IMG/VR virus record: IMGVR_UViG_3300021400_000219
Location: 121,970 to 139,573 of that record
From: a virus
DNA: 17,604 bases
Reading direction: 5' to 3' (one strand)
Shown here: one piece after another, positions 939-17,294 of the stretch
Layout: every line of letters begins with the position of its first letter
Numbering within the stretch: the stretch's first letter is position 1
Position numbers and translations under genes: made by a program
The notes under the pieces: generated by a model
Told to the model about the DNA's origin: nothing
What the model saw: the letters and a program-made list of their open reading frames with translations, nothing else
Database searches by the model: none

Positions 939-1173
939 CGTGTGAGCTAAAACCGTGCATATGGGGTGTTGTTAAACCGGTCGGATTTGTGTTAGAAAAA
1001 GTTGCATATGAGATTGTGTTTTCGGGATTCGCGGGGGCGGCGCTGAAAGCCACTCGTGTGAGCAAAATTTTTGCATATGGGGGTCTTGTTCGGGCGCGCG
1101 GAAACGCCGCCAGCACACGCCCGTGCGCCGGCGGTTCAAGGTGTGCCCTATTATGAGGGGTAAGCGTGTGAGC
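939..1173. repeat. iteron-like direct repeats in a GC-rich island
   Basis: CGTGTGAGC at 939-947, 1055-1063 and 1165-1173. TGCATATG(G/A)G at 956-963, 1003-1010 and 1072-1079. CTTTAAAG palindromes around 1196-1220. Confidence 0.6.
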
Positions 1174-1255
1174 CCTTATAGCCTTAAAGGTATAAAGCTT
1201 TAAAGCTTTAAAGGTCTAGTTTTGCCCGGGCGAATTAGCGCAGGCTAACCGCAGG

Positions 1256-2843: not shown

Positions 2844-3536
2844 TTATTCCCCCTTTAGAGCCTTTCTATAAACCTGAACTTTACGCCAGCAATTATAAGA
2901 AATAGAATCATCAAAATCAAGGCCAGATTTAATAATTTTCATGTAAATCTGTCTTTCAATGTCCACATCTTCAAGCCCTGTATGTTCTTCAATAAAATCA
3001 GTATTATTAGTGATAAATCTATACGCAATTTCTGCGCTAGTTTGTACGTTGCCACAATCAGAAATAAATCCGTTGCGTTCTGCATAGTTAATAAAAGCGG
3101 GGGTTTTCAAAATAGAACTGCAAGCCATGTTCCAGATGCAAAAATATTCAGTATTATAAGGGAAAAACCAGCGGATAAAAGAACAAGTGATAAAACGTGC
3201 ATCATTATTTGTGGCCCGCTTGTCAAAGCCCATATTATACGCCCCTACTTTATAGGCGTTATACTCTCTCATGTCCGCCCACAAAATACGCCGAATATTT
3301 AACAGCTTTTTCAGGGTTCTTTTACCCTCTTTAATCTGCTCCCAATACTGCGGAATCTTTTCCGCAAAATAAGCGTTCTGCATCATTTCCTTATCAAGGA
3401 AAATTTCAGCCACAACGAAAGAACGCTCGACCAAAATCTCACCAGTGGTATTATCCACAATCTGGTAGCCCACATCATAGGGCAAAGGCTGTTCCACACA
3501 GTTGGCAGTCTCAGTATCAATAATCAGAATATTCAT
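2844..3536 (-). CDS. DEDDh-type 3'-5' exonuclease (DnaQ-like fold)
   Basis: True start is MNILIIDTET at 3536; the upstream part of the 295-aa track ORF reads through the promoter. Motifs: IIDTET (ExoI), YNMGFD (ExoII), HTGLEDVD (ExoIII with His). Confidence 0.85.
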   Translation of the reverse strand: MNILIIDTETANCVEQPLPYDVGYQIVDNTTGEILVERSFVVAEIFLDKEMMQNAYFAEKIPQYWEQIKEGKRTLKKLLNIRRILWADMREYNAYKVGAYNMGFDKRATNNDARFITCSFIRWFFPYNTEYFCIWNMACSSILKTPAFINYAERNGFISDCGNVQTSAEIAYRFITNNTDFIEEHTGLEDVDIERQIYMKIIKSGLDFDDSISYNCWRKVQVYRKALKGE

Positions 3537-4398: not shown

Positions 4399-4761
4399 TC
4401 AAATGTCCATGGCCTTGAAGTAGGTGACACGCTTGTCAACATACTTGTCAACCATGCCGTTGAGATACAGGGTGCGGAGCAGACCGCTCACCCGCTGGCT
4501 GGTAGCATCTGCCAGCTCAGGCACCCCAGCGCAAATCTCAGAGATGCGGAAACCCTTGTCCGAATCATCCCGCAGGAAATCCAGAATCTTGGAGCGAATG
4601 GCATCGTTTTCCACCTGCTTGGCGGAAGGCTTGCGCTCAGCCGTGGACTTCTTGGCAAAGCCCTCGGCAATCTTTTCCAGCTTCTCCCGCAGGGCAGTTT
4701 CCTCAGCAGGGACGAAAGTCAGGGCCATCTCAATAGCAGTCTTATTAGTCAGCTTAGTCAT
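4399..4761 (-). CDS. winged-helix-like small DNA-binding protein, paralog family 1 (subtype b)
   Basis: True start MTKLTNK at 4761; the track ORF extends through the promoter. The C-terminus GFRISEICAGVPELADATSQRVSGLLRTLYLNGMVDKYVDKRVTYFKAM is nearly identical to that of 9645..10019. Confidence 0.9.
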   Translation of the reverse strand: MTKLTNKTAIEMALTFVPAEETALREKLEKIAEGFAKKSTAERKPSAKQVENDAIRSKILDFLRDDSDKGFRISEICAGVPELADATSQRVSGLLRTLYLNGMVDKYVDKRVTYFKAMDI

Positions 4762-5037: not shown

Positions 5038-5066
5038 TAGACAAGCGCATGTTTTTGTGATAAAAT
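5038..5066 (+). promoter_or_regulatory. plus-strand promoter facing a GC-rich island
   Basis: TAGACA-N17-TAAAAT (TGA-extended) followed by TAGTGGGGGG. Its -35 overlaps a minus-sense TTGACA (GTCAATAGACA, 5033-5043). Confidence 0.5.
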
Positions 5067-5072
5067 TAGTGG

Positions 5073-5150
5073 GGGGTCTGCGCGCGGCGGCACCGGCCGT
5101 TATCGGGACGCGCGTGTGTGTGCGTGTGTCGCTTTAAAGAGCTAAAGCGC
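5073..5150 (+). ncRNA. candidate small RNA / GC-rich island, copy C
   Basis: Starts downstream of promoter 5038-5066. Sequence GGGGGTCTGCGCGCGGCGGCACCGGCCGTTATCGGG...GCTTTAAAGAGCTAAAGCG, homologous to 14045-14135 and 16951-17045. Contains a 22-nt alternating purine-pyrimidine run at 5108-5129. The 3' end is unknown. Confidence 0.3.
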
Positions 5151-5170
5151 CCGGGAGAGTTAGCGAGGGC

Positions 5171-5458
5171 TTACCCCTCGCTCGTATCTACTCCCAGAAT
5201 AATCAACAGACTACAGATAGTGCCCCACGCATGGACGCCCATGTCCTCAGGGATTGCATCCCACACATCAGGATACAGACGGCGCACACCAGAGAGAAGC
5301 ATCCCGCCCCAGTTACCACCGCAAGCGGTACACAAGTCAAGGAAATCTTTAAAACTCATTTTAGTTTTCTGCGCCATGCACGCATAGACAACAACTTCAT
5401 CGCCCCACTCGTTCCGCACAGTATCAAGGGCTTCCATGAAATCAGAATGAAGAATCAT
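5171..5458 (-). CDS. hypothetical protein (95 aa)
   Basis: ATG 5458 overlaps the upstream stop as ATGA. Begins MILHSDFMEALDTVRNEW...; the stop is in the loop of AGCGAGGG/CCCTCGCT. Confidence 0.85.
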   Translation of the reverse strand: MILHSDFMEALDTVRNEWGDEVVVYACMAQKTKMSFKDFLDLCTACGGNWGGMLLSGVRRLYPDVWDAIPEDMGVHAWGTICSLLIILGVDTSEG

Positions 5459-5601
5459 CTTGCACACTCCTTTCTCAAATCAGCTTTCAGATGGTGGCGA
5501 GCCATCCGCCGACAACTTCTCTTAATGTTTCTGTTGGAATAGGAATCAGTCCAGTAACGCCCACGGCGCAGACCCACACTCTTAGCCTTGAAGTTATTCA
5601 T
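5455..5601 (-). CDS. small Arg/Lys-rich protein (48 aa)
   Basis: True start at 5601 after GAGGGAGGAAC SD. Sequence MNNFKAKSVGLRRGRYWTDSYSNRNIKRSCRRMARHHLKADLRKECAR. Below the track cut-off once the promoter read-through is trimmed. Confidence 0.7.
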   Translation of the reverse strand: MNNFKAKSVGLRRGRYWTDSYSNRNIKRSCRRMARHHLKADLRKECAR

Positions 5602-7439: not shown

Positions 7440-7805
7440 TTACTCCCCCTTCACCTGGAAGCGGCTGACCCGCTTCTCCACAACCTTCTCCACGGTTCCA
7501 GCTTCTACCAGCTGGCGCAGAAGGGCGGAAGCCTGCTGGCTGGAAGAGAGTTCCAGTTCGGCGGCTACTTCCTTCGCCTGCATAGGCTCGTGGTCAGTCA
7601 GCAGTTCAACGATGCGGGCCTTGATACCCTCGTTTTCAATCTGCTTCTTGGTGGGCTTGCGCTCGCCCTTGGACTTGGAAGCGTTCCGCTTCTCATAGCT
7701 GGCCTTGCAAGCAACCAGCTTTTCCATGGCTTCCTCGTTGAAGTCAGCGGGCAGGGAAGCAATAGCCATTTCCAGAGCCTTCACATAAGTCATCTTGTTA
7801 GTCAT
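7440..7805 (-). CDS. winged-helix-like small DNA-binding protein, paralog family 1 (subtype a)
   Basis: True start MTNKMTYVKAL at 7805. Collinear with 1714..2082 (EKLxACKASYxKRN..KGERKP.KKQ.ENEG..., ...ASALLRQ.VEAGTVEKV.EKR). The stop is in the GUAA loop of AAGGGGGA/TCCCCCTT. Confidence 0.9.
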   Translation of the reverse strand: MTNKMTYVKALEMAIASLPADFNEEAMEKLVACKASYEKRNASKSKGERKPTKKQIENEGIKARIVELLTDHEPMQAKEVAAELELSSSQQASALLRQLVEAGTVEKVVEKRVSRFQVKGE

Positions 7806-7879
7806 AGTATGCACTACCTTTCTCTGTTTTAACGAGTTCAGCTCTCAATCTGTTTTGTTCTTTCCCTTACTGTGGCTTT

Positions 7880-9644: not shown

Positions 9645-10019
9645 TTAAACCCCCTCACCCATGGCCTTGAAATAAGTAATGCGCTTATCTACGTACTTAT
9701 CTACCATTCCGTTCAGGTAGAGCGTCCGCAGAAGTCCGCTCACCCTCTGGGAAGTCGCATCGTTCAGAGCGGGAACACCTGCGCAGATTTCAGAGATACG
9801 GAAACCTCTGTCCACATCTTCCCGCAGGAAATCCAGAATTTCCGCACGGACGGCGTCGTTCTCTGCCTGCTTTGCGCTAGGCTTGCGGGGAGCGGTGTTC
9901 TTCTTAATGGCCTGTTCCTTCATCTTCTCCAGCTTTTCCACAACATCCGTCATGTCAGCGGGAACGTAGGACAGAGCAACTTCCAGAGCCTTAACAGTAG
10001 TCATCTTATTGGTAGCCAT
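9645..10019 (-). CDS. winged-helix-like small DNA-binding protein, paralog family 1 (subtype b)
   Basis: True start MATNKMTTVKAL at 10019. The stop is in the palindrome GGGGGTT-T-AACCCCC. Confidence 0.9.
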   Translation of the reverse strand: MATNKMTTVKALEVALSYVPADMTDVVEKLEKMKEQAIKKNTAPRKPSAKQAENDAVRAEILDFLREDVDRGFRISEICAGVPALNDATSQRVSGLLRTLYLNGMVDKYVDKRITYFKAMGEGV

Positions 10020-10073
10020 AGTATCACTCACTTTCTCTGTTTGTGGGGTTTATCAGCTCCCCTTGATGTATTA

Positions 10074-10414: not shown

Positions 10415-10475
10415 GATTTCCAGCGCGCGACACCGGAACCCCTGGGCCGTGTGCGTGTGCGACGGGTGCACGCAG
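10415..10475. other. GC-rich island, copy D (no clear promoter)
   Basis: CAGCGCGCGACACCGG...CCGTGTGCGTGTGCGACGGGTGCACGC; 14-nt alternating purine-pyrimidine run at 10448-10461. Confidence 0.5.
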
Positions 10476-12521: not shown

Positions 12522-12550
12522 AGTATAGCACCATTCCCCGGGATAGTCAA
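12522..12550 (-). promoter_or_regulatory. sigma-A/70-type promoter, class C
   Basis: Minus TTGACT-N17-TATACT (TGC-extended); CCCCGGG lies in the spacer. Confidence 0.7.
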
Positions 12551-12614
12551 TACAAAATCGCAAATTTCCCCTTGTGCAAATTATACAAATGTTGGAGCGG
12601 ATTTTTGGGGGCTG

Positions 12615-12631
12615 TTGTGCAAGTTGCACAA
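12615..12631. promoter_or_regulatory. 17-bp perfect palindrome, operator candidate
   Basis: TTGTGCAA-G-TTGCACAA, read directly. Confidence 0.6.
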
Positions 12632-12669
12632 TTAGTGTAACCTGGGTCACATTAAAAGTAACAAAAGAG

Positions 12670-12697
12670 TTACAATCTCTAACAATCAATTACAATC
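12670..12697. repeat. three 10-bp-phased TWACAATC repeats (iteron-like)
   Basis: TTACAATC 12670-12677, TAACAATC 12680-12687, TTACAATC 12690-12697. The core is shared with the class B GGTTACAAT motif. Confidence 0.7.
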
Positions 12698-12727
12698 TTT
12701 TTTTTACTTTCAAAACACTTTTTTTAA

Positions 12728-12910
12728 GTTAGCAGTTAGCAAAGGGTAATGCTAGTTAGCACAAGCTAATTGTTGTTAGTTCGAACTAACTCCGGTTAGC
12801 AGGGACTAACTGGAGTTAGCCTAGGCTAACTTTAGCACACTAAAGCTGTAGCGATTTAGCGAACTAAAGTGCGCCGGACCTGGCAATTTGAACAATTAGC
12901 GGCTGCTAAC
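12728..12910. repeat. tandem array of 8 TTAG(C)-loop-(G)CTAA mini-palindromes
   Basis: Hairpins or palindromes at 12737-12754, 12755-12769, 12775-12790 (GTTAGTTCGAACTAAC), 12795-12810, 12814-12831 (AGTTAGCCTAGGCTAACT), 12830-12845, 12855-12868 and 12896-12909. Confidence 0.85.
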
Positions 12911-12913
12911 TTT

Positions 12914-13167
12914 GTGCATTTTGACGAGGTTTCGGGATTCGTCAAGTTGCACAAAAATGTAACCAAATTGTAACCAAAATTTGTGCAATTTGACGGTGGC
13001 GCGAACTCGGCTGCCAACGACTGCGCTGGGCCACAGTGCACTCGTTGGCGGCCGGTTCGTCATTTTGCACAAATGCGTGCGTGCGAGGGGCCTTAACTTT
13101 ATGCATTATGACGAAAAAAAATTTTTGTGCAAAATGACGAATCAAATCCTGATTCGTCAAAATGCAC
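12914..13167. repeat. array of GTGCA-N3-TGACG motifs in nested inverted pairs
   Basis: Forward copies at 12914-12927, 12983-12996, 13101-13114 and 13127-13140. Reverse copies at 12939-12952, 13057-13070 and 13154-13167. Further copies at 4294-4307 and 10322-10335. Confidence 0.8.
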
Positions 13168-13192
13168 AAAAAAAGAGGCATTGCCCGGCCTC
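13166..13192 (-). terminator. intrinsic terminator
   Basis: Minus GAGGC-CGGGCAAT-GCCTC followed by TTTTTTT. Confidence 0.6.
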
Positions 13193-13463
13193 ATCGGGGG
13201 GAAGCTTGACGCCCTTCCCTGGCGGTGGTGTCCACTTTCGGGGACACGCCCGGCTCCGTTTGCTAGCCGCAGGAGCGTCGCGGCGCTGGGGTCGTTCCCT
13301 TGCCCCTTGGGGAACTTGATGGCCTCCATTTCTATCCCGCGGCCTTGGGGGCGGCCTAGCTACTTTGTGGGGAGTATCGCCCACGTTTCGCCGACGCGGC
13401 TGGGATTTTGGTGTCATCGCGCATCCCGTGCGCTCAAGAGGGACAAGTCAACCTCTTTTCTAT
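13166..13463 (-). ncRNA. candidate ~300-nt GC-rich structured non-coding RNA
   Basis: Runs from promoter 13470-13498 to the intrinsic terminator GAGGC-N8-GCCTC plus T7 (13168-13192). No SD-preceded ORF. Many local hairpins, e.g. GUGUCC-CCGAAAGU-GGACAC and GGGAAG..CUUCCC. Confidence 0.4.
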
Positions 13464-13469
13464 GGTCTT

Positions 13470-13498
13470 ATTATAGCACCCGCAAGGGGTTTTGTCAA
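13470..13498 (-). promoter_or_regulatory. sigma-A/70-type promoter driving the non-coding transcript
   Basis: Minus TTGACA-N17-TATAAT (TGC-extended); an A13-containing UP-like tract upstream (plus-strand T run 13509-13521). Confidence 0.7.
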
Positions 13499-13729: not shown

Positions 13730-13758
13730 ATTATAGCAGACCCGCCCGGGTTTGTCAA
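13730..13758 (-). promoter_or_regulatory. sigma-A/70-type promoter (gene-proximal tandem)
   Basis: Minus TTGACA-N17-TATAAT (TGC-extended); CCCGGG lies within the spacer. Confidence 0.7.
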
Positions 13759-13924
13759 CCCTTTTTTTCATTTTTTTTATTTTTTTTTGGTTCCCCATAC
13801 CCCTCCGGGGAACCACTGGCCGGCTATTTTTTACCTCCCGCCCTAGGGGGTGGCCCTTGGTACTTTGTGGGGTATCTTGCCCACGTTTCCCAGAGGGAGG
13901 GCCCGGAGGGTTTCCCCTCCTGAC
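13759..13924 (-). ncRNA. candidate short GC-rich RNA between tandem promoters
   Basis: Starts after promoter 13931-13959. Contains GGAGGG-GAAA-CCCTCC and GGTTCCCC..GGGGAACC hairpins and a ~50-nt block homologous to 13341-13392. Confidence 0.3.
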
Positions 13925-13930
13925 ATGATT

Positions 13931-13959
13931 ATAATACCACAGGCCCGGCTAAAAGTCTA
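13931..13959 (-). promoter_or_regulatory. sigma-A/70-type promoter (distal tandem; back-to-back with a plus-sense TTGACA box)
   Basis: Minus TAGACT-N17-TATTAT (TGG-extended). Its -35 overlaps a plus-sense TTGACA in GTCTATTGACA (13955-13965). Confidence 0.55.
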
Positions 13960-14007
13960 TTGACAAATCTCACAAATCGGGATGTTCTATTTTGTGCATT
14001 TTTACTC

Positions 14008-14037
14008 TTGACAGCCGAGCCTATTTTGTGGTATAAT
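14008..14037 (+). promoter_or_regulatory. plus-strand promoter facing a GC-rich island
   Basis: TTGACA-N18-TATAAT (TGG-extended); the upstream CATTTTTACTCTTGACA is conserved with 16916-16944. Confidence 0.6.
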
Positions 14038-14044
14038 ATTTCTG

Positions 14045-14171
14045 TACTGCCTGCGCGCGCGGTCGCCGGCCGTTAGCGGGGGCTAACTGTGCCTGGGTGT
14101 GCGCCTTTATTGCAATAAAGCACTAAAGTGCACAAGGGCAAAAAACTACGAGGATTTTTTAATCCTCGTAG
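14045..14171 (+). ncRNA. candidate small RNA / GC-rich island, copy A
   Basis: CTGCGCGCGCGGTCGCCGGCCGTTAGCGGGGGCTAAC...GTGTGCGCCTTTATTGCAATAAAG... running into hairpin 14146-14171, which is shared with the convergent minus-strand gene. Confidence 0.3.
14139..14171 (-). terminator. intrinsic terminator containing the stop codon
   Basis: Minus CTACGAGGATT-AAAA-AATCCTCGTAG followed by TTTTTTG; the stop of 14159..14290 lies in the loop. Confidence 0.75.
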
Positions 14172-14290
14172 TCAATGGCGATGACCTTCCAGCCCTTGGG
14201 CGGTTCGTAGTTTTCCGGCAGGCCCTTCCAGAGAATCAATTCAGTATCGGCCCACTCTCCATCAATCTTTCTGATTTCAATGCTCCACAT
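14159..14290 (-). CDS. hypothetical micro-protein (43 aa)
   Basis: True start MWSIEIRKIDGEW at 14290 after AGAAAGGA; the conserved 5'UTR is shared with 1714..2082 and 17067..17294. Confidence 0.6.
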   Translation of the reverse strand: MWSIEIRKIDGEWADTELILWKGLPENYEPPKGWKVIAIDYED

Positions 14291-14342
14291 AATCTTTTTT
14301 CCTTTCTGGTTTGTTAGGTTTTCCTTCCCTCTTTCTGATTGT

Positions 14343-14371
14343 ATTATAGCAGACTCAACCGGGTTTGTCAA
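14343..14371 (-). promoter_or_regulatory. sigma-A/70-type promoter
   Basis: Minus TTGACA-N17-TATAAT (TGC-extended). Confidence 0.75.
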
Positions 14372-14385
14372 CCCCTTTTTCAAAT

Positions 14386-15590: not shown

Positions 15591-15619
15591 TTGACAAATT
15601 GAAAAAACTGTGATACAAT
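15591..15619 (+). promoter_or_regulatory. plus-strand promoter followed by a T19 tract
   Basis: TTGACA-N17-TACAAT (TGA-extended), then AAAGGGGGAATTA and T19. Confidence 0.6.
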
Positions 15620-15632
15620 AAAGGGGGAATTA

Positions 15633-15651
15633 TTTTTTTTTTTTTTTTTTT
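15633..15651. repeat. homopolymer T19 (A19 on the gene strand)
   Basis: Counted directly from the sequence. Confidence 0.95.
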
Positions 15652-15652
15652 G

Positions 15653-15688
15653 GTTAGCTTAGGCTAACTTAGGTTAGTATGTGCTAAC
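15653..15688. repeat. two TTAGC-type mini-palindromes
   Basis: GTTAGC-TTAG-GCTAAC (15653-15668) and GTTAG-TATGTG-CTAAC (15673-15688), followed by CCCGGGCG at 15691. Confidence 0.8.
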
Positions 15689-15705
15689 TACCCGGGCGCA
15701 AGAAA

Positions 15706-16591: not shown

Positions 16592-16807
16592 AATGTTTAC
16601 CATTTCAGGCTTTACCATCTCAACAGGAAGGAAACAACCGCTTTTGCAGTAAACTTCTTGTTTCACGTTTCCATCTTTGATAACCAGACGATACACGCCG
16701 CAGGTTCTTCCAGCCGCTTCCATTTTTGCTTGTTTCCAAGCTTTTCCAAAAGCTGCAGTATCCTCAAACTCAAACCCCGCAACCTGATAAACAAACTTCT
16801 TAGCCAT
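16586..16807 (-). CDS. hypothetical protein (73 aa)
   Basis: ORF track; AAGGAAAGGGG SD. Confidence 0.85.
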   Translation of the reverse strand: MAKKFVYQVAGFEFEDTAAFGKAWKQAKMEAAGRTCGVYRLVIKDGNVKQEVYCKSGCFLPVEMVKPEMVNIF

Positions 16808-16839
16808 TTTAATGACCCCTTTCCTTAATTTCTATATTT

Positions 16840-16868
16840 ATTATAGCATCCTGTAAGCTATTTGTCTA
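16840..16868 (-). promoter_or_regulatory. sigma-A/70-type promoter, class C (divergent)
   Basis: Minus TAGACA-N17-TATAAT (TGC-extended); TTGCACAAAAA at 16877-16887. Confidence 0.6.
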
Positions 16869-16915
16869 TTGGTAAATTGCACAAAAAAGTTTTTGATTTT
16901 TGGGCATTTTTACTC

Positions 16916-16944
16916 TTGACATTCGCTGTAAATTGTGGTAAAAT
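16916..16944 (+). promoter_or_regulatory. plus-strand promoter facing a GC-rich island
   Basis: TTGACA-N17-TAAAAT (TGG-extended) followed by AAAATGGGGAG. Confidence 0.6.
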
Positions 16945-16950
16945 AAAATG

Positions 16951-17076
16951 GGGAGCTGTTGTTCGCGCGCGCCGAAGGCCGTTAGCGGCCGCTAACCGGG
17001 TGTGCGTGTGCGCACCTTTATAGCTTTAATGGGTTAAAGTAACCGGGTAAAAAAGAGAAGGACTTTTCAGTCCTTC
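16951..17076 (+). ncRNA. candidate small RNA / GC-rich island, copy B
   Basis: GGGGAGCTGTTGTTCGCGCGCGCCGAAGGCCGTTAGCGGCCGCTAACCGGGTGTGCGTGTGCGCACCTTTATAGC... Includes the 16-bp palindrome GTTAGCGGCCGCTAAC (16981-16996) and a 16-nt alternating purine-pyrimidine run (17000-17015). Confidence 0.3.
17046..17076 (-). terminator. intrinsic terminator containing the stop codon
   Basis: Minus GAAGGACT-GAAA-AGTCCTTC followed by TCTTTTTTACC; the stop codon (17067-17069) spans the loop and the first base of the 3' arm. Confidence 0.75.
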
Positions 17077-17294
17077 ATCCCCATTTCTACGAAAACTTCA
17101 AAGCCTTCAAAGTAGTAAGTCCGCCATTCGCCTTCAAATTCAATTTCTTCCCGCTCCGCCATTTCAGACAGAACTACTTCAACTTCCTGCAAGGCCCGCC
17201 ATTCTGCAGCATCACCATCAAACCGAACTGCTACAACACCATCTTCAAACTCAACCTCAAAAGCTTCCAGCATTTCAAGAATCATTTCTAACAT
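17067..17294 (-). CDS. small extremely acidic protein (75 aa)
   Basis: ORF track; AGAAAGGAAA SD. 23 D/E versus 5 K/R by count. Confidence 0.85.
   Translation of the reverse strand: MLEMILEMLEAFEVEFEDGVVAVRFDGDAAEWRALQEVEVVLSEMAEREEIEFEGEWRTYYFEGFEVFVEMGMKD

Follow-up and report, generated by a model that had tools for sequence, protein, structure and literature searches.

A multi-copy family of antisense promoter units with GC-rich bodies in the putative early region of a large gut phage

Background

The stretch of phage DNA examined here, called the window (17,604 nucleotides), is packed densely with short genes on its minus strand, each behind a near-consensus sigma-70-type promoter, and between some of these genes lie GC-rich islands that are preceded by promoters facing the other way. 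The question raised by this arrangement is what such islands do in a region where all genes point in the opposite direction. The initial annotation offered two readings, a multi-copy family of small RNAs, or supercoil-absorbing or insulating elements built on sequence prone to form Z-DNA. How large phages that infect gut Clostridia control their early regions has, to my knowledge, hardly been studied.

A promoter scan of the window finds 87 promoter-like sites against 32 expected, with about 40 minus-strand promoters scoring at least 10/12. The DEDD-type exonuclease at 2844-3536 is 35-43% identical to proteins of Enterococcus Herelleviridae phages and of phage phAss-1, a member of the TAG-recoding 'code 15' clade that is predicted to infect Clostridia (PMC10607447). 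The same region is present on near-identical contigs of 136 and 174 kb, where every called gene lies on what is the minus strand of the window. The exonuclease matches and the uniform gene direction on these contigs mark the window as early-region DNA of a large gut phage, one that is related to phAss-1.

Results

The three homologous GC-rich islands of the initial annotation, here units A, B and C, were recovered with 72% column identity in their alignment and with the common consensus TGCGCGCG..CCGGCCGTTAGCGG..GCTAAC..GTGTGCG..CTTTA/TAAAG. The scan places a plus-strand sigma-70-type promoter directly upstream of each, and each island lies between the end of a minus-strand gene (5171, 14159 and 17067) and the next minus-strand promoter, antiparallel to all genes as called on the contigs of the same phage. 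The elements of the three units and of the genes that converge on them are as follows.

5038..5066, plus strand: promoter of unit A, TAGACA-17-TGaTAAAAT, 10/12 with TG, kept in strains L037, L038 and L040
5073..5155, plus strand: body of unit A, with a GC run, a degenerate palindrome (GTTATCGGG), a 22-nt alternating run at 5108-5129, the hairpin CGCTTTAAAGAGCTAAAGCG and then CCCGGG at 5150-5155
5163..5181: hairpin after unit A, overlapping the stop codon of the gene 5171-5467, with no U-tail on either strand
5171-5467, minus strand: gene converging on unit A
13992..13998, plus strand: box TTGTGCA upstream of unit B, inside TTTTGTGCATTTTTACTC, just before the -35
14008..14037, plus strand: promoter of unit B, TTGACA-18-TGgTATAAT, 12/12 with extended -10
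14044..14145, plus strand: body of unit B, with predicted start at G14044, GC run 14052-14061, palindrome GTTAGC-GGGG-GCTAAC 14072-14087, GT run 14097-14104, CTTTA/TAAAG palindromes 14105-14132 and an A-tract
14146..14171: hairpin CTACGAGGATT-TTTT-AATCCTCGTAG, common to unit B and the gene 14159-14383, with a U-tail on the minus strand only
14159-14383, minus strand: gene converging on unit B
16916..16944, plus strand: promoter of unit C, TTGACA-17-TGgTAAAAT, 11/12 with TG
16951..17051, plus strand: body of unit C, with GGGGAGC leader, GC run 16964-16973, palindrome 16981-16996, alternating run 17000-17015, a CTTTA/TAAAG region and CCGGG
17057..17076: terminator hairpin of the gene 17067-17294, with a U-tail on the minus strand, also scored by the scan as a minus-strand terminator (17076..17057)
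17067-17294, minus strand: gene converging on unit C

The converging genes encode acidic or soluble-looking proteins of 74, 75 and 98 aa, and the overlap between unit and gene is limited to the terminator hairpin. The box TTGTGCA, which is also found upstream of the homologous promoters in relatives and of the cassettes of a sister lineage, occurs together with its complement TGCACAA 20 times in the window against 2.8 expected. Two further plus-strand promoters (11/12 and 10/12) are found in 15591-15700 and 17433-17560, each followed by (G)AAGGGGGAWT, a poly-T of 21-30 nt, one or two GTTAGC palindromes, CCCGGG or CTCGGG and a hairpin. The length of the poly-T varies among assemblies, the one at window position 15651 is where the 136-kb contig breaks off, and the same layout is seen with five palindromes in the related locus L041.

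The islands are conserved in related genomes. Neighbouring proteins and a single scan with a DNA pattern led to relatives at the strain and species level, in which 12 distinct homologs of the units were collected; the pattern scan of metagenomes yielded mostly chance matches, from which a profile filter left six true units on four contigs. Among the 12 homologs, pairwise identity is 92% in the -35 and 92% in the -10 hexamer, against 50% in the spacer between them, and the TG of the extended -10 is kept in 12/12, a pattern which indicates selection on the hexamers and the TG. For unit B, hexamers and TG are kept with a variable spacer in the orthologs L041, L109 and L150, and the promoter of unit C is kept in L041, L043, L042, L148, L109 and L081. 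Inside the bodies, only the GCGCG run and GGCCGTTAGCGG-NN-GCTAAC are conserved in the alignment of the 12 homologs.

The units are also kept independently of the genes around them. Compared with L041, unit B shows 90.4% identity over 13749-14145 and unit C 87.9% over 16800-17070, against 80-86% for the flanking genes, and in L041 unit B adjoins the 75-aa gene (91% aa identity) which in the window adjoins unit C. The hairpin 14146..14171 is replaced by a different hairpin in that ortholog. In strain L038 an identity of about 96% runs through unit A and gives way to complete divergence right after the CCCGGG at 5150-5155. The units thus behave as autonomous modules, which stay intact while neighbouring genes are shuffled, and the independence of a unit from its converging gene argues against a gene-specific antisense target. 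The gene adjoining unit B is an ORFan with no orthologs to follow, and the neighbourhood of the gene adjoining unit A is not conserved in IMG/VR.

The motif CCCGGG itself is found at 22 sites in the window against 3.4 expected (e.g. 1665, 4335, 5150, 7392, 8098, 8630, 11465 and 15691), of which 20 are intergenic (the sites at 12537 and 13745 fall within minus-strand promoter spacers). The intergenic sites belong to modules with a recurring order: the reverse of a minus-strand promoter, an A/T-rich UP region, a palindrome or repeat, CCCGGG(CG), a hairpin and the stop codon of the upstream gene. The palindrome or repeat is of four types (TGGAA-N7-TTCCA, GTTACA-N5-GTTACA, TTGTGCA-N3-TGCACAA and CTTTA..TAAAG), and the hairpin is GTTAGC-N4-GCTAAC in 7 cases. 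As L038 diverges exactly after one CCCGGG, these modules may be the junctions at which genes are shuffled. The window also encodes four paralogous proteins of about 120 aa on the minus strand (1714-2082, 4399-4761, 7440-7814 and 9645-10031), with sub-threshold winged-helix matches only (MarR/HTH_20-like), and these are candidate binders of the four intergenic palindrome types.

The initial annotation had further noted related blocks without an obvious promoter. This was borne out for one of them, as a profile built from A, B and C finds a copy at 1121-1198 (nhmmer, E 1.6e-4), together with one further copy just outside the window, but the block at 10415-10475 is a partial copy which the profile does not detect. 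These promoter-less elements are:

934-1050: further degenerate repeat upstream of copy F
1085..1230, plus strand: copy F, TTCGGGCGCGCGG...GGTGTGCCC...CTTTAAAG repeats...CCCGGG, kept in L037, L039 and L040 and partly diverged in L038
10415..10475, plus strand: partial copy D, GCGCGCG and then GTGTGCGTGTGCG (GC run and GT run), ending in a plus-strand terminator-like hairpin at 10452-10474

The alternating purine-pyrimidine runs are exactly as first described, with lengths of 22 nt (5108-5129), 16 nt (17000-17015), 14 nt (10448-10461) and 10 nt (14052-14061). Against 300 dinucleotide-preserving shuffles, GC-rich alternating runs of at least 14 nt are strongly overrepresented (3 vs 0.10 expected), as are those of at least 16 nt (2 vs 0.01), and the 22-nt run is absent from all 300. 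With their location between heavily transcribed units, the runs themselves could thus be thought functional, as Z-DNA-forming tracts that absorb supercoils. However, the length of the run varies from 7 to 22 nt among the homologs, the 3' GT run is missing in 5/12 (L042C, L148, L109a, L081 and L109b), and the cassettes of the sister lineage carry no alternating runs, their stems being GC-rich and non-alternating. On these grounds Z-forming potential does not appear to be the conserved property of the islands, and a selected Z-DNA function is unlikely, indeed the least probable of all explanations considered here. The pattern looks rather like (CG)n with C-to-T changes and length slippage, of which a loss of 2 nt in L040 is an example.

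The small-RNA reading fares differently. A conserved, autonomous, promoter-driven unit without an open reading frame is found, as that reading would have it, but the RNA structure that should accompany it has no support from the alignment. A helix GCGCGCGC/GUGUGCGC predicted by RNAalifold, in which G-U pairs are possible in plus-strand RNA only, was rejected, as it shows no covariation and is missing in 5/12 homologs, and the inner hairpin of copy F favours the minus strand instead. Covariation in the aligned copies and homologs, suggested earlier as a check, gave zero compensatory changes for this helix and for the GUUAGC hairpin; pairing over P1 and P2 is 87.0% observed and 87.0% shuffled, with no double changes, and the RNAalifold covariation term is +1.96. 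Minimum-energy folds of single sequences disagree among the homologs, and unit A folds no better than its shuffles (z = 0.04). Searches of the window with Rfam 15 covariance models (E up to 1) and with ARAGORN for tRNA and tmRNA gave no match on the units, nor did a search of the sister loci, and predicted duplexes with 41 early-gene leaders are no better than those of shuffled units. An RNA anti-CRISPR, or mimicry of CRISPR repeats, was also considered as a candidate; the stems are longer than typical CRISPR repeats and unlike each other between copies.

There is no conserved open reading frame downstream of the unit promoters, which do not serve a protein gene. A micro-ORF of 15 codons (MGxLxFxAxKAVSGx*), in frame in all C-type units (L041C, L043C, L042C, L148, L109a, L081 and the window at 16951-16996), was rejected, as its ATG follows the -10 hexamer by 3 nt and precedes the expected transcription start, and as the frame is missing from A and B. 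Its stop lies inside GCTAAC, and the frame of L043C holds a TAG, which is recoded in this clade. I judged this micro-ORF to be a by-product of the fixed spacing between promoter and palindrome.

In the window, none of the hairpins behind A, B and C carries a plus-strand U-tail, which leaves the ends of a plus-strand RNA uncertain; these hairpins are primarily terminators of the converging genes. In the homologs L043C, L109b, L148 and L081, the hairpin is preceded by an A-tract and followed by a U-tract on the strand of the unit, an arrangement expected of true bidirectional terminators. It is likely, though not certain, that a discrete plus-strand RNA of about 90-130 nt is made, and a read-through antisense RNA is possible.

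On the gene strand, two other GC-rich stretches (about 60-66%) are found at 13175-13463 (minus) and 13800-13922 (minus), behind the promoters 13498..13470 (12/12) and 13959..13930. The terminator 13192..13175 closes one of them, and a repeat of about 50 nt is common to both (13344-13392 and 13840-13892). Neither stretch has a credible open reading frame or an Rfam match, and both are candidate structured non-coding RNAs.

Besides its GCGCG run, the body has one copy of the 16-bp palindrome GTTAGC-N4-GCTAAC, located at about +29 to +44 of the unit. At least 20 copies are present in the window, many of them in intergenic modules and frequently as CCCGGG-N3-GTTAGC-N4-GCTAAC at gene ends. In the homologs which carry the palindrome its stem is invariant (11/11) while the loop varies, and in four of the five homologs without the GT run (L148, L109a, L081 and L042C) a second GTTAGC-N4-GCTAAC follows exactly 20 bp after the first. 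An array of the palindrome with the same 20-bp period is located at 12735-12910, with the regular spacing scored at 12735-12815. Such a pattern is typical of a site for a dimeric DNA-binding protein, and an invariant stem that also recurs as a DNA array with a 20-bp period suits a DNA site bound by protein no less than a hairpin in RNA; as the motif is palindromic, the same hairpin would form in RNA from either strand. The array is part of a region of about 900 bp without a convincing open reading frame (12560-13460), where 7-9 palindromes at the exact 20-bp period are accompanied by an AT-rich stretch (12640-12725) and by two large inverted repeats TTGTGCA.TTTGACGA...TCGTCAA.TGCACAA (12912-12954 and 13125-13169). 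This iteron-like array may be a replication origin or the landing pad of a regulator.

In a sister lineage, defined by relatives with an exonuclease 54-63% identical, perfect promoters preceded by a TTTGTGCA box are found opposite to the early genes at the same position, and behind them come, in order, GGAATTTTCGGCGC, the hairpin of GC-rich sequence, an A-tract and lastly a terminator. With a covariance model built on the hairpin only (R1), 53 copies are detected in 307 kb, nearly all antisense (counted in L007, L009, L013, L017, L018, L020-L028, L030, L034 and L035). Of these hairpins 39 are located at a fixed distance directly behind a promoter of 11-12/12, and 36/53 of the cassette promoters are perfect (12/12). 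The stems covary, with 60 double-change cells against 16 expected, and are 84.7% paired compared with 30-58% when the partners are slid. On the promoter strand, G-U pairs are not in excess over A-C (GU 10 vs AC 7), so either RNA or DNA could be the structured form. Some sister hairpins stand face to face with a sense promoter, and a few precede a ribosome binding site and an open reading frame.

The promoter modules of B and C are near-identical to those of the sister cassettes (e.g. TTTTGTGCATTTTTACTCTTGACA vs TTTTGTGCATTTTTTCTCTTGACA in L010), and the module common to both types consists of the TTTGTGCA box, TTGACA and a TG-extended -10 in antisense, intergenic position. Both types are multi-copy and antisense, at the same genomic position, with a GC-rich body that starts TTCGGCGCG-like. 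The R1 body differs from the window units in being a single covarying hairpin, without the GTTAGC palindrome and without alternating runs. Membership of A, B and C in the R1 hairpin family was rejected, as the model does not detect them; its best matches in the window, at E 0.37 and E 5, fall on a generic intergenic module and on copy F. As, in addition, the two types are almost mutually exclusive between genomes, the window units appear to be a lineage-specific version, outside the R1 hairpin family, of a clade-wide cassette of antisense promoter plus GC-rich element. The R1 family is undescribed in its own right.

Discussion

The units form a family whose promoters are maintained by selection and which persists independently of its neighbouring genes. 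In the preferred explanation, to which I would assign a probability of roughly 0.5, each island is the body of an autonomous antisense unit that is driven by sigma-A and yields a small non-coding RNA for early-gene control; as a small-RNA reading it is plausible but unproven. A promoter of the host sigma-A type would fire opposite to the direction of all early genes, and the RNA would start a few bases before the GC-rich block, reach a length of about 90-130 nt and extend into the reverse side of the hairpin that terminates the converging early gene, without encoding a protein. It could act in early-gene control as a small regulatory countertranscript or as a decoy, as it would present the same GUUAGC hairpin that many early genes carry on the stop codon or immediately behind it, and that may therefore sit at the 3' ends of early mRNAs. 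Either the RNA product or the act of transcription could be what matters.

Alternatively, and as the main rival, selection may act on the DNA: on an antisense-facing RNA polymerase that is tightly bound and on the operator palindrome, the RNA being a by-product. The polymerase would then insulate strongly transcribed early units from each other, as a roadblock or by collision, or the cassette would serve as a regulated antisense promoter. This is a possible explanation, albeit distinctly less probable than the small-RNA units. The invariant stem with its variable loop, the abundance of the 16-bp site, its 20-bp-period array and the pairs spaced by 20 bp in some units all agree with it, and the geometry of the half-sites would fit a helix-turn-helix dimer, with the four winged-helix-like paralogs encoded in the same window. 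Promoters that match the consensus at 12/12 are of the type limited at promoter escape, and such perfect promoters head most of the sister cassettes. The window-type units moreover are devoid of RNA covariation and are always located just downstream of a sense terminator. On the other hand, the sister hairpins covary in sequence, which speaks against a sequence-specific operator there, and the proper bidirectional terminators of several homologs suggest a defined RNA.

Two other explanations appear improbable. The units could be origin-like elements, in which plus-strand transcription activates an adjacent initiator-binding iteron and AT-rich region, and indeed the layout of promoter, iteron-type palindrome, AT-rich CTTTA/TAAAG palindromes and A-tract would fit, as would the large array of exact 20-bp period beside an AT-rich stretch (12640-12910) and the promoters at 15591 and 17433 and in L041, behind which lie poly-T and arrays of this palindrome. 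However, at least three to five such units are present in 17 kb, searches of the window proteins found no initiator gene, and the units end at terminators. That they are instead functionless, as selfish or decaying repeats, duplicated intergenic filler or recombination scars of a modular intergenic architecture, could be suspected from the degenerate promoter-less copies (D, F, the repeat at 934-1050 and the one outside the window) and from the position of the units at mosaic junctions, but selection keeps the hexamers and the TG beside a spacer that varies, and the units are better conserved than the neighbouring coding sequence.

Among known systems, lambda OOP RNA and P22 sar RNA are short non-coding phage countertranscripts from a strong constitutive promoter, and the small-RNA units would resemble them in that the promoter is directed against an early operon and converges on the 3' end of an early gene, the RNA ending at or near a shared hairpin. 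Unlike these, the units occur in several paralogous copies per genome, carry a repeated palindromic site in the body and have no fixed antisense target, the converging gene being different in L041. REP/BIME elements of enterobacteria are multi-copy GC-rich palindromes at the 3' ends of genes, with proposed effects on mRNA ends, termination and, through gyrase binding, supercoiling. The units share copy number, GC content, palindromes and location at gene ends with them, whereas a REP element lacks its own promoter, keeps a conserved sequence across the copies of one genome and spreads by means of RAYT transposases, a type of gene that was not noticed here. Arrays of iterons or operators are similar in the 16-bp inverted repeat, with half-sites one helical turn apart and the 20-bp period at 12735-12910, and in the single or double palindrome within units; in the units, however, the palindrome is placed behind a promoter, within the sequence that would be transcribed. 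None of these three fits fully. In the type I toxin-antitoxin systems of Firmicutes a small RNA and a small gene likewise converge and overlap at a bidirectional terminator (PMC2887945), but the genes converging on the units are acidic or soluble-looking rather than short hydrophobic toxins, and the partner changes between relatives. Searching phage records at the nucleotide level gave no match to the units, representative bacterial genomes gave five chance matches only, in unrelated taxa, and a literature search found no description of such antisense promoter cassettes. The units are a real and conserved multi-copy family, specific to this phage lineage and, by these searches, so far undescribed.

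Conclusion

The window has 3-5 antisense cassettes in its 17.6 kb, and the sister-lineage loci that were examined have about one per 6 kb. Conserved promoter cassettes at this density point to a regulatory layer that is invisible to gene annotation and that could consist of countertranscripts, traps for polymerase or decoys for an operator. Being short and sharply bounded, the units are open to direct testing, and as they mark mosaic junctions, they help to explain the shuffling of early genes in such phages. More speculatively, and with considerable doubt, the early regions of large gut phages in the TAG-recoding clade of phAss-1 may be organised by previously undescribed, multi-copy 'boundary cassettes', in which a near-perfect host promoter against the early genes is fused to a GC-rich element, a covarying hairpin in the sister lineage or a GCGC run with GTTAGC operator palindrome in the lineage of the window. 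If so, RNA polymerase would be trapped or collided to insulate neighbouring units, or abundant decoy RNAs with the hairpin type of the stop codons would titrate a phage protein that binds this hairpin or operator, and the same modules would double as junctions for the shuffling of gene cassettes.
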